64,000 nt of DNA, from contig CAWETI010000002.1 of the NCBI GenBank assembly GCA_963812015.1, forward strand, positions 1,536,001-1,600,000, in the 5' to 3' direction. The notes below the pieces were generated by a model. It made no database searches and was not told the DNA's origin. It was given only the letters and a program-made list of their open reading frames with translations. The first letter of the stretch is position 1. The number at the start of each line of letters is the position of its first letter. The DNA is from an uncultured delta proteobacterium (GTDB lineage Bacteria; Desulfobacterota; Desulfobaccia; Desulfobaccales; 0-14-0-80-60-11). A program made the translations under genes and the position numbers. Of the stretch, positions 36,236-38,569 are shown in pieces.

Positions 36236-36278
36236 TATCTTGCAGGGTGCGCCCGGCGCCCCCTGCCTCGAACCAAGG

Positions 36279-36308
36279 AGCCGGCCCCGTCTGGGGCCGG
36301 CTTTTTTT
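36279..36308 (+). terminator. intrinsic terminator after hppA
   Basis: agccggcccc-gtct-ggggccggct followed by a T-run. Confidence 0.8.
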
Positions 36309-36363
36309 GTGGGCGATGTAATCGGCAACTTAGGGGAATTTGTGGTAATATGCTAATTGGCTT

Positions 36364-36385
36364 TATCTTTGCGTCTTTGCGAGAG
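36364..36385. repeat. octamer array, TCTTTGCG orientation (left boundary of cassette)
   Basis: tatctttgcgtctttgcgagag. Confidence 0.8.
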
Positions 36386-36389
36386 AAAA

Positions 36390-36773
36390 ATGCACGAAAA
36401 TGATATCACGAGACTGATTGTGGGTGCTTCATATAAAATACATACCACGCTAGGTCCAGGTCTCCTGGAGTCAGTTTATGAAGCCGTGCTTTTTTACGAA
36501 TTGGAAGAGCTGGGGTTGGTAGTGGCCCGCCAGGTTCCCATCCCCGTGGTCTATTCAGAAATTAAGTTTGATGAAGGCTTTCGTGCAGACTTGATAGTAG
36601 CTGGAAAAGTGATTGTAGAATTGAAGTCCATTGAGAAAGTGGCGCCTGTTCATAAGAAGCAGCTTCTTACTTACCTAAAATTGGCTGATAAGCGGCTTGG
36701 ATTGTTGATTAATTTTGGAGAGGCGCTGATTAAGTATGGCATTACTCGCATAGTAAACCAACTTCCTGATTAG
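36390..36773 (+). CDS. GxxExxY protein (PD-(D/E)xK nuclease-like fold)
   Basis: LGPGLLESVY, FRADLIV, IVELKS, QLLTYLK, GLLINF; low GC; ATG 36390. Confidence 0.92.
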   Translation: MHENDITRLIVGASYKIHTTLGPGLLESVYEAVLFYELEELGLVVARQVPIPVVYSEIKFDEGFRADLIVAGKVIVELKSIEKVAPVHKKQLLTYLKLADKRLGLLINFGEALIKYGITRIVNQLPD

Positions 36774-36774
36774 G

Positions 36775-36808
36775 CTCTCGCAAAGACGCAAAGACGCAAA
36801 GGCGCAAA
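36775..36808. repeat. octamer array (CGCAAAGA)x4 between GxxExxY and MTase genes
   Basis: ctct cgcaaaga cgcaaaga cgcaaagg cgcaaa. Confidence 0.85.
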
Positions 36809-36812
36809 TAAA

Positions 36813-38459
36813 ATGGACAACTGGAAAAACCAGCTTTTTTTCGGGGACAATCTGGAGATTCTGCGGAGCGGCCGTATTCCCGTGGGGAGCGTGGACCTGG
36901 TTTATCTGGACCCGCCGTTCAACTCCAACGCCACCTACAATATCCTGTTTGCGGAAAAGAGCGGGGAGAAGTCCGCGGCCCAGATCACTGCGTTCGAGGA
37001 CACCTGGCACTGGGGCGAGGAAGCCATGACGGCCTATGACGACGCCATGAAACTCGGCGCGCCCCGCCTGGCGGACCTGCTCCAGGCCCTCCGGGCCTTC
37101 CTGGGCCAAAACGACATGATGGCCTACCTCACCATGATGGCAGTGCGCCTGGTGGAACTGCACCGGGTCCTGAAGCCCACGGGGTCTTTGTACCTGCATT
37201 GTGATCCCACCGCGAGTCATTATATCAAGCTACTTTTAGATGCAATATTTAGCCCAAAGAATTTTAGAAATGAAATAATCTGGAAGAGAACCAGTGCGCA
37301 CAGCAGTGCCAAAAGATTGGGACCAATTCACGATACAATTTTTTATTATACAAAAACTGATTCTTATATGTGGAATCCTCTATATACCGAACATGCTGAG
37401 AAATATATTAGATCTCATTACTCCCAAATCGACGGCGAGGGGCGGAGATGGACTGCAAGCGATCTTACGGCAAACGGCATTCGGCATGGTTCATCCGGTG
37501 GGCCATGGCGAGGATTTGATGTTACTGCTAAAGGAAATCATTGGAAATTTAAAATTGAAAAATTAGAGCAATTAGATGCAGACGGAAGAATATATTGGCC
37601 TGCTGGTGGAGGCTGGCCACGGTATAAAAGATATTTGGATGAATTGAAAGGCGTCTCTCTTCAAGATTTATGGGATGATATTCCACCAATCAATGCAGTT
37701 GCCAAAGAACGCCTGGGCTACCCCACCCAAAAGCCCGAAGCCCTGTTGGAGCGGATAATCCAGGCCTCCAGTAATGAAGGCGATATCGTGCTGGACCCCT
37801 TCTGCGGCTGCGGCACCACCATTACCGTGGCGGAGCGCCTGCACCGCCGCTGGATCGGCATTGACATCACCCATCTGGCCATCACCCTGATCAAGAAGCG
37901 GTTGCACGACACGTATGGCCCGGAGTTGGCCCCTTATGAAGTGATCGGCGAGCCCGCCGACGCCATGGGGGCCGAGGCTTTGGCGGAGCAGAATCGCCAC
38001 CAGTTCGAGTGGTGGGCCTTGGGGCTGGTGGAAGCCTTCCCGGCCCAGGACAAGAAAAAGGGGGCGGACAAGGGGGTGGACGGGGTGATCTATTTCAAGG
38101 ACGACGCCGGCGGCGTGCATAAGAAAATCATCGTCCAGGTGAAGAGCGGCCACGTCGGCTCGGGCCAGGTCCGGGATTTGAAAGGGGTCCTGGAGCGGGA
38201 CCAGGCGGCCATCGGGGCGCTCATCAGCCTGAAGCCGCCCACCCGGGATATGAGGGTGGAAGCCGCGGCCGCGGGTTTCTATGTGCCGGAGCAGTTCCCG
38301 GAGCATCGTTTTCCGCGTCTCCAGATTCTCACCATCGCCGAACTCTTCGCCGGCAAGAAGCTGGAATATCCCCAATGGGCGCCGTCTTCGACCTTTAAAA
38401 AAGCGGCCCGCCGCCGCAAAGGCCCCAGCGATGAAGAGAGGCAGGGGGAATTGCTGTGA
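36813..38459 (+). CDS. N6/N4 DNA methyltransferase (beta order) fused to a C-terminal Mrr-like endonuclease-fold domain
   Basis: YLDPPFN before DPFCGCGT; YPTQKP; C-terminal DKGVDG...IIVQVKSG. Confidence 0.9.
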   Translation: MDNWKNQLFFGDNLEILRSGRIPVGSVDLVYLDPPFNSNATYNILFAEKSGEKSAAQITAFEDTWHWGEEAMTAYDDAMKLGAPRLADLLQALRAFLGQNDMMAYLTMMAVRLVELHRVLKPTGSLYLHCDPTASHYIKLLLDAIFSPKNFRNEIIWKRTSAHSSAKRLGPIHDTIFYYTKTDSYMWNPLYTEHAEKYIRSHYSQIDGEGRRWTASDLTANGIRHGSSGGPWRGFDVTAKGNHWKFKIEKLEQLDADGRIYWPAGGGWPRYKRYLDELKGVSLQDLWDDIPPINAVAKERLGYPTQKPEALLERIIQASSNEGDIVLDPFCGCGTTITVAERLHRRWIGIDITHLAITLIKKRLHDTYGPELAPYEVIGEPADAMGAEALAEQNRHQFEWWALGLVEAFPAQDKKKGADKGVDGVIYFKDDAGGVHKKIIVQVKSGHVGSGQVRDLKGVLERDQAAIGALISLKPPTRDMRVEAAAAGFYVPEQFPEHRFPRLQILTIAELFAGKKLEYPQWAPSSTFKKAARRRKGPSDEERQGELL

Positions 38460-38469
38460 ACCTTTGTGC

Positions 38470-38556
38470 CTCGCAAAGACGCCAAGGCGCAAAGGAAGTA
38501 GTGTGCGCTCTGCGCATACTACTTGATATCTTTGCGTCTTTGCGCCTTGGCGTGAG
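38470..38556. repeat. inverted octamer arrays enclosing a GTAG-type hairpin (right boundary of cassette)
   Basis: ctcgcaaagacgccaaggcgcaaag / aagtagtgtgcgc-tct-gcgcatactactt / ctttgcgtctttgcgccttggcgtgag. Confidence 0.85.
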
Positions 38557-38569
38557 ACTATAGTGAATC

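Follow-up and report, generated by a model that had tools for sequence, protein, structure and literature searches.

The window analysed here, a 64,000-nucleotide (nt) stretch of DNA from an uncultured delta proteobacterium (contig CAWETI010000002.1, positions 1,536,001 to 1,600,000), carries between hppA and an arnT-like gene a unit in which a small GxxExxY gene (36390..36773, + strand) is followed by a gene for an amino-methyltransferase (MTase) fused to an Mrr-type nuclease domain (MTase-Mrr; 36813..38459, + strand). Short arrays of tandem octamers, here termed arms A to D, lie around both genes, and the full order is hppA, a repetitive extragenic palindrome (REP)-like hairpin, a terminator-like hairpin, a promoter-like motif, arm A, GxxExxY, arm B, MTase-Mrr, arm C, a GTAG-type hairpin, arm D and arnT. 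The original prediction took the arrays for recombination or target sites of an integrase-free two-gene cassette with a restriction-modification (R-M) cargo. Its description of the locus was borne out: family scans identified the flanking genes as hppA and an ArnT-like gene, no integrase or transposase is present within the unit, the 18-bp direct repeat is exact (36364-36381 and 38527-38544), as is the 13-bp direct repeat at 36777 and 38470, and the inverted repeat around the GxxExxY gene, given as 19 bp at 36367-36385 and 36775-36793, is exact and in fact 20 bp long. Each of the two ATGs starts 4 nt past an array, and 22 of the 60 nt at 36661-36720, within the GxxExxY gene, are G or C. Throughout, G000 denotes the genome that holds the window, the other G numbers denote genomes of relatives and L numbers denote loci.

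The DNA behind hppA begins with the REP-like hairpin 3´ of the hppA stop codon (36244..36263, no strand), one of 11 copies of its family in the genome, followed by the terminator-like hairpin with its T run (36280..36308, + strand) and a putative promoter-like motif of the extended -10 type (36340..36351, + strand). A sigma-70/terminator scan listed neither the motif nor the hppA hairpin, and the promoter call therefore rests on conservation and position. Arm A (36364..36385, - strand) consists of two octamers and a head that points toward the GxxExxY start; it is a shortened form of an arm that has three units in G002, G011 and G013. Arm B (36775..36808, + strand), inverted relative to arm A, has the head, three octamers and a partial fourth, and its position is occupied by a full arm-loop-arm palindrome in G001, G002 and G011. 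Arm C (38469..38494, + strand) lies 3´ of the MTase stop codon and arm D (38527..38557, - strand) is inverted relative to it, with a GTAG...CTAC REP-type hairpin (38496..38524, no strand), absent from the original prediction, in the loop that they enclose. The stretch from arm C through the hairpin to arm D is predicted to fold strongly (-56 kcal/mol, z -8.3). For single arms, folding does not exceed that of shuffled sequences (z -0.15 and +0.71); only arm pairs fold. This arm-hairpin-arm unit, or one arm of it, also precedes arnT in slot alleles without GxxExxY (G003, G004 and G014). Assembled contigs of run X1, the one run of 22 with a large share and possibly the source sample, match the window layout in pieces, with no piece listed over about 37142-37374 or 38346-38376.

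The arm proved to be a defined, dispersed repeat, a polar unit of ~30 bp composed of a TC[A/T] head and three CGC[A/C]AAG-N octamers. In a profile of 160 arms at GxxExxY loci, collected by a search that demanded three octamer units, C is found at position -2 in 159 and T at -3 in 145, and a fourth unit is present in at most 10. We rejected chance and a slippage microsatellite as sources of the arrays, given the fixed head, the bounded length and the clade specificity described below. The original prediction had called for a genome scan for such arrays. Arrays of two or more octamers number 15 in G000, four in the window unit and 11 elsewhere, the latter mostly without a gene, and the genome has one GxxExxY gene. 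A search with the arm profile found 18 arms at a threshold of >=14 bits and none in each of three codon shuffles; the number of arrays is far above chance. The remote arms, which occur singly or as head-to-head or tail-to-tail pairs, lie mostly in gene-less spacers among housekeeping genes, including nusG-rplK, rplW-rplB, rpsE-rpmD and adk-map (gene names read from translations), and are placed between stop codons and ribosome-binding sites.

The 18-bp direct repeat occurs only twice in the whole genome. Exact matches of 18-22 nt are, however, also found in 5 of the 52 pairings of a window arm with a remote arm and in 3 of the 78 pairings of two remote arms, as well as in 2 of the 6 pairs within the window, and the repeat thus needs no special cause: it is sequence that the members of one repeat family have in common. 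A role for it as a target duplication or a cassette boundary was discarded, since equal or longer exact matches join unrelated arms and the empty allele of the locus has none. What spreads appears to be the arm or the arm pair. Across 21 genomes, what occupies a given spacer of the ribosomal operon differs: octamer arms, heptamer arrays, other hairpins or nothing. In 11 of 16 genomes, for instance, the rplF-rplR spacer is 16-19 nt long; in G008 and G009 it has octamer arms between the stop codon and the ribosome-binding site, with a possible 4-nt duplication in G009 (one site, seen by eye). At locus L122, six head-to-head arm pairs at ~167-nt spacing form a tandem array upstream of a GxxExxY gene that is reminiscent of bacterial interspersed mosaic elements.

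Arms were next found to go with GxxExxY genes across genomes, as the original prediction had anticipated. Of 539 confirmed loci in the genome collection, the best 80 were taken, and 78 of these have both flanks. Two or more units within 80 nt were present on both sides of the gene in 58/78 loci and on at least one side in 74/78, compared with 0 and 10, respectively, of 132 control open reading frames (ORFs) from the same loci. A motif-free periodicity test, which is weak, gave both flanks in 24/78 loci versus 0/132 controls. The phyla represented among these loci are Planctomycetota, Cyanobacteriota, Acidobacteriota, Chloroflexota, Verrucomicrobiota, Bacteroidota and others. The arms around GxxExxY genes are inverted and occur in both polarities, with the heads toward the gene, as in the window, or away from it. 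When the 110-nt flanks of genes from the clade of the window protein (near clade) were compared with those of a far-clade set of 80 metagenome loci (median 40% identity to the window protein), the octamer was present on both sides in 62/74 near-clade versus 0/75 far-clade loci, and a 9-bp unit, or nonamer, on both sides in 39/75 far-clade versus 0/74 near-clade loci. The arm unit changes with the protein clade. The GxxExxY gene is patchy, found in 16 of 41 genomes, and the median arm count was 17 in 10 genomes of the family with a near-clade gene versus 2 in 15 without, a comparison among kin that are not independent.

At some loci, the arms enclose more than the GxxExxY gene. Of the 78 loci, 17 have arms >250 nt from it, and among the 11 neighbouring proteins scanned at such loci are type I HsdS, an aminotransferase and the products of other housekeeping genes. 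At L096, L116 and L131 the GxxExxY units are inside defence operons. At one locus GxxExxY comes after hsdS within a type I R-M operon, where further arms precede hsdS, and two GxxExxY genes lie between a helicase gene and an MmeI-like gene; the neighbours at L131 are named only by their likeness to those at L116. We also noted that, in four relatives (L024, L034, L037 and L039), a far-clade GxxExxY gene is directly followed by what, by eye, resembles an antitoxin-type nucleotidyltransferase gene.

The window GxxExxY protein (127 aa) is encoded by the sole copy in the genome and matches TIGR04256 with 144.8 bits (cut-off 35) and PF13366 with 138.2 bits (cut-off 22). A structure model built from a 70-sequence alignment, from which one locus with a stop codon was excluded, reached a predicted local distance difference test (pLDDT) score of 94.5, compared with 36 for a single-sequence model. 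The best fold matches of the model are Cas4, RecB-type nucleases (AdnAB/AddAB), Holliday-junction resolvases and restriction-enzyme folds. Foldseek gave a best E of 9e-3 with probability 1.0, and VIA a best Z of 8.1 with a root-mean-square deviation of 3.6 over 101 residues, the restriction-enzyme and Cas4 folds scoring Z 7-8. Across the 70 sequences, E77, K79, H88, Q91 and Y95 are invariant and D67 is conserved at 90% or more, and Q91 and Y95 form a Q91-x3-Y95 (QxxxY) motif. The predicted fold and the D..ExK residues agree with the nuclease assignment of the original prediction and support GxxExxY as a predicted PD-(D/E)xK nuclease. The likeness to Cas4 and RecB-type nucleases (4r5q, 4ic1) and to PF13366 (PDDEXK_3) extends to the fold, the D..ExK residues and the QxxxY motif, while GxxExxY differs in being only 127 aa long, stand-alone and devoid of Fe-S cysteines. 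A PADLOC match to Cas4 was weak (E 5e-4), sequence searches returned no relative with a solved structure, and family scans gave no Y1_Tnp match. The part of PMC3424549 that treats PDDEXK_3 gives its function as unknown.

We then compared the hppA-arnT interval, reading the DNA behind hppA in 21 relatives and at one further locus; arnT was within the stretch in 14 relatives. The interval is a variable slot. It is empty and without arms in G008, contains an MTase without arms or GxxExxY in G022 (another genus, with the gene in frameshifted pieces) and a relic of one in G020, and has an MTase stub only in G014. In G003, G004, G006, G007 and G017 it contains an MntA/HepT-like pair, with family matches mostly under the cut-off, in most cases together with an MTase stub. 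GxxExxY is present in the forward orientation in G000, G001, G002, G011 and G013, and inverted, with no MTase seen, in G016, G009, G021, G018 and L095, with arnT seen for G016 and G009 only, such that the same slot has the gene in both orientations; no arnT was nearby in G010, G012, G015 and G019. The original prediction had expected an empty site to keep one repeat unit, which G008 does not, and precise cargo loss at a repeat was not encountered: G008 is arm-less, the MTase losses are internal deletions, and G016 and G009 are ambiguous. G002 keeps mntA, and G013 a 5´ stub of mntA, directly before the left arm (arm A). This adjacency suggests that the GxxExxY unit inserted downstream of the toxin-antitoxin pair and upstream of the MTase. 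The G006 slot (L002) has a tandem duplication of the MntA-HepT-like pair and the MTase start behind hppA, suggesting that duplication and deletion have recurred in the slot.

The MTase-Mrr gene has a history of its own. The 548-aa protein matches N6_N4_Mtase and Mrr_cat/NA-iREase1, with the MTase motifs (DPPF and, as FxGxG, FCGCG) and the nuclease motifs intact in one ORF. D-x-G-[VI]-D-G is present in 29 of 29 homologue rows and Q-[VI]-K, QVK in the window, in 28, with one row ending early. PADLOC matched only its MTase_II and MTase_III models. The protein resembles type III Mod proteins and the single-chain R-M enzymes of type IIC/IIG in combining MTase and nuclease domains in one chain with a variable central specificity region, and differs from them in the order DPPF before FxGxG and in the C-terminal Mrr-type domain, a putative restriction domain. 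The central segment (37200..37650, + strand; 36-44% GC), the presumed target-recognition region, has 70-78% identity to MTases at other loci versus 38-41% to its slot orthologues, and was likely swapped, as would be expected for a specificity region. Several relatives have many MTase paralogues, with 16 matches in G005 and 12 in G006.

None of 24 MTase homologues at other sites in relatives is bracketed by arms; one of these has a decayed arm after its stop codon, six have one flank cut off by a contig end, and two weak matches were excluded. Likewise, outside the forward slot alleles, none of the 78 GxxExxY loci has this MTase within the up to 2.5 kb available per locus. The G022 MTase branches first (97/98 and 100/99) in a clade of slot MTases and two or three non-slot copies, and, where both gene ends are visible (G003, G011, G013 and G014), the gene was lost by internal deletion that kept them. 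On the strength of the two null counts and the internal deletions, we rejected the MTase as a dedicated cargo, and these observations, together with the arm-less slot MTase of another genus, speak against the two-gene cassette that had been proposed. The part of the proposal that placed the MTase between repeats fared better: 102-bp direct repeats with 99/102 identical positions enclose the MTase in G001, related arm pairs stand 5´ of the gene in G002 and G011, and two inverted alleles contain no MTase trace. Since the slot varies among relatives and the MTase was mostly lost by internal deletion, the apparent two-gene cassette is a composite, in which the MTase is likely an older resident that was later surrounded by arms.

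The slot alleles also bear on the mobility of the GxxExxY gene. In 12 alleles, some with GxxExxY and some without it, the promoter-like motif closely follows the terminator on the + strand. G016 has it on the - strand before the inverted GxxExxY gene, between two inverted arms, and in inverted alleles the terminator-like hairpin likewise lies between two arms. Forward and inverted slot genes fall into one family-level clade (98 by the Shimodaira-Hasegawa-like approximate likelihood-ratio test in a quick tree), with the forward genes as a subclade, and this branching would fit one old inversion followed by allele exchange. The hppA and arnT host trees are partly resolved and leave the direction of the inversion unsettled. 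Arm-arm joints in the contigs have 19-28 nt on the short side, compatible with other arm palindromes, and a loose end of run X1 at 36807 corresponds to the arm at C2:1091101.

Our best explanation, to which we give a probability of roughly 0.6, is that the four arrays are copies of a dispersed GxxExxY-linked arm, that the nuclease recognises and spreads the arms, and that the MTase is an older neighbour that they came to surround. GxxExxY and its arms would then probably constitute a selfish nuclease-plus-repeat system. The ancestral slot would have been promoter-MTase-arnT, in this genus also with the MntA-HepT-like toxin-antitoxin pair, and an arm-GxxExxY-arm unit would have entered between that pair and the MTase. 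Arms would have spread to neighbouring spacers and around pre-existing hairpins, later duplications and deletions would have given the present layout, and the promoter-plus-GxxExxY block would have been inverted between two arms at least once. At the molecular level, the protein may bind the octamer triplet and nick or cut near the arm head, with host repair or recombination copying arms to new spacers and moving or flipping the gene. We infer that this would follow the logic of REP elements and their REP-associated tyrosine transposases (RAYTs) with a different enzyme chemistry.

A number of observations weigh against this explanation. G024, a 99%-complete genome, has 58 very uniform arms, many of them single, together with only a distant GxxExxY gene that has different arms, and no GxxExxY gene at all was found in G008 (13 arms), G015 (8), G031 (9) and G034 (6). 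On the evidence of these five genomes, arms can be maintained, and may even spread, where no cognate gene is detected. The 20 of 58 G024 arm sites that were inspected comprise solitary arms, dyads, and arms with another hairpin nested inside, and among these 20, for which empty alleles were not available, there was no shared long element, fixed end or fixed target duplication. The structural scores of the GxxExxY model are modest (best Z 8.1; Foldseek E 9e-3). The slot-gene clade also takes in a long branch and four genes from outside the slot, the same forward and inverted subclades would also result if two insertions had occurred independently close to one terminator, and the promoter inversion is known from one genome (G016) only. 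Finally, inversion, excision or circle junctions were not supported in the contigs of four runs, and contigs cannot show rare forms.

Three other explanations were weighed. The arms could be recombination sites of an integrase-free system in which GxxExxY and MTase-Mrr move together or the MTase is captured and released as cargo. The repeats around the MTase in G001, the arm pairs on its 5´ side in G002 and G011, the bracketing of hsdS by arms at one locus, and the two GxxExxY genes between a helicase gene and an MmeI-like gene can all be read in this manner, and G016 and G009 keep an arnT-side arm or hairpin with no MTase trace, as a clean loss would give. We nevertheless consider it unlikely, as the MTase is bracketed at 0/24 sites elsewhere and present at 0/78 GxxExxY loci, slot MTases are arm-less in G022 and a relic in G020, and the empty G008 slot has no arm. 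Moreover, removal at arms is seen in 0/5 forward alleles as opposed to internal deletion in four alleles, and the genes bracketed elsewhere include housekeeping enzymes.

A regulatory role, in which arms serve as operators at the DNA level or as RNA hairpins downstream of one stop codon and ahead of the following ribosome-binding site, with GxxExxY as a host-serving binding or processing factor, would account for the arms in spacers of ribosomal-protein and other housekeeping operons and for the strong RNA folding of paired arms, and the clade specificity would suit any cognate pair. Related paired triplets of Geobacter metallireducens are proposed as global-regulator sites in PMC2700814. This reading is also improbable, given that the contents of one and the same spacer change among close relatives (octamer arms, heptamer arrays, other hairpins or nothing), a pattern that competing selfish elements suit better, that the gene is present in just 16 of 41 genomes and that the nuclease residues are conserved. 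In the remaining alternative, the arms would be spread by a RAYT-like enzyme or by host slippage or hairpin repair, and GxxExxY would be a small defence or toxin-type nuclease riding between them. The arm-rich genomes without a cognate gene speak for such a passenger, as do three Y1 transposase-like genes in G000, the REP hairpins inside arm palindromes, and the G002 GxxExxY gene, which directly follows mntA at the place where sister alleles have hepT. All three Y1 genes, however, are flanked by their own non-octamer hairpins, and a passenger leaves unexplained the strict match of clade to unit and the arms at both gene ends, in both polarities, across phyla; we therefore give it little credence.

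Among known systems, the closest parallel is that of REP/REPIN-RAYT. Passages of PMC3337134 and PMC3733652 describe, as seen here, a single-copy small enzyme gene between cognate repeats with one repeat family per enzyme clade, and gene-less intergenic copies as singles and head-head or tail-tail doublets with variable spacers. Those same passages concern HUH/Y1 tyrosine transposases, self-contained hairpins and hundreds of copies, in contrast to the PD-(D/E)xK fold, the non-palindromic head with three tandem octamers and the tens of copies found here. The class 2 "predicted global regulator binding sites" of Geobacter metallireducens, set out in 2009 in PMC2700814, share with the arms three tandem repeats per site and intergenic, opposite-strand pairs at variable distance. 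In our comparison, the reverse complement of the consensus printed there resembles CACGGAG units around a GxxExxY gene in G024. The published unit is unlike the CGCAAAG of the window, and the passages of PMC2700814 on these sites propose regulator or IHF/HU binding and draw no link to a nuclease; its main text has 0 matches to "endonuclease". Passages of PMC2996986 and PMC3543383 mention multicopy sequences in general terms only. We found no paper tying GxxExxY or PDDEXK_3 to repeats, though subscription papers and the supplements of PMC2700814, PMC2996986 and PMC3543383 could do so. The window unit contains no DDE, HUH, serine or tyrosine recombinase and no attC-type cassettes, arms occur around the gene in both polarities and no fixed target duplication was seen at the 20 G024 sites, all of which sets it apart from insertion sequences, miniature inverted-repeat transposable elements and integrons. 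The first two have a gene between inverted ends and gene-less end pairs elsewhere, and integrons have variable cargo behind one promoter, features that the locus resembles. Small cyanobacterial repeats reportedly described by Elhai et al. in 2008 may include these arms. What this locus adds is a series of alleles at a single slot, the inversion of promoter and gene together, and evidence that speaks against the MTase being cargo.

GxxExxY proteins form a large prokaryotic family without a known function, for which the clade-matched arms are a concrete candidate substrate, and the octamer and nonamer clades offer a built-in specificity control that makes the function directly testable. Mobilisation of arms by GxxExxY would provide an analogue of RAYT/REP with unrelated chemistry and would explain repeat families that have been catalogued as guessed regulator sites. 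The history of the locus would be that of a gene entering a promoter-driven slot of defence-type genes, occurring there in both orientations and leaving arms around its neighbours; it would illustrate how apparent cassettes originate and warns against reading them as cargo units. More tentatively, GxxExxY proteins might be a so far undescribed type of minimal mobilising enzyme. Such a PD-(D/E)xK nuclease of 14 kDa would recognise three consecutive words of 8 or 9 bp and distribute them among the spacers of operons, and it would invert or move any DNA between two arms, be it the nuclease gene together with a host promoter or, on occasion, a gene for defence. A four-helix-bundle gene flanked by inverted heptamer arrays in the same genomes would then be a second representative of a broader, unnamed set of selfish genes with arrays at their flanks.

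Other repeats were recorded in the same genomes. The sole four-helix-bundle gene of G000 (TIGR02436; L297, C2:1391920-1392395) is between inverted heptamer arrays, with 61 heptamer doublets genome-wide, and the rplW-rplB spacer of G018 (L189:11460-11890) has as an insert a TIGR02436 gene whose inverted heptamer arrays differ from these. The TIGR02436 protein has a weak match to the Avd protein of diversity-generating retroelements. The gene and its heptamers look like a parallel gene-plus-array system. Three Y1/RAYT-like genes (L294, L295 and L296) in G000 each lie between their own inverted hairpin repeat, and a period scan of this genome found 84 period-7 and 29 period-8 arrays from several unrelated unit families, with many inverted pairs 50-450 nt apart. 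Several repeat systems of this kind coexist in G000. Across 20 relatives (L173-L192), the ribosomal-operon spacers rplW-rplB, rpsE-rpmD, rplR-rpsE, rpsC-rplP and adk-map are filled, between stop codon and ribosome-binding site, by repeat families that differ from one relative to another. Within the window itself, two of the heptamer arrays, of the GGTTTTC / GAAAACC type, are present at ~27592 and ~33257, away from the GxxExxY unit.

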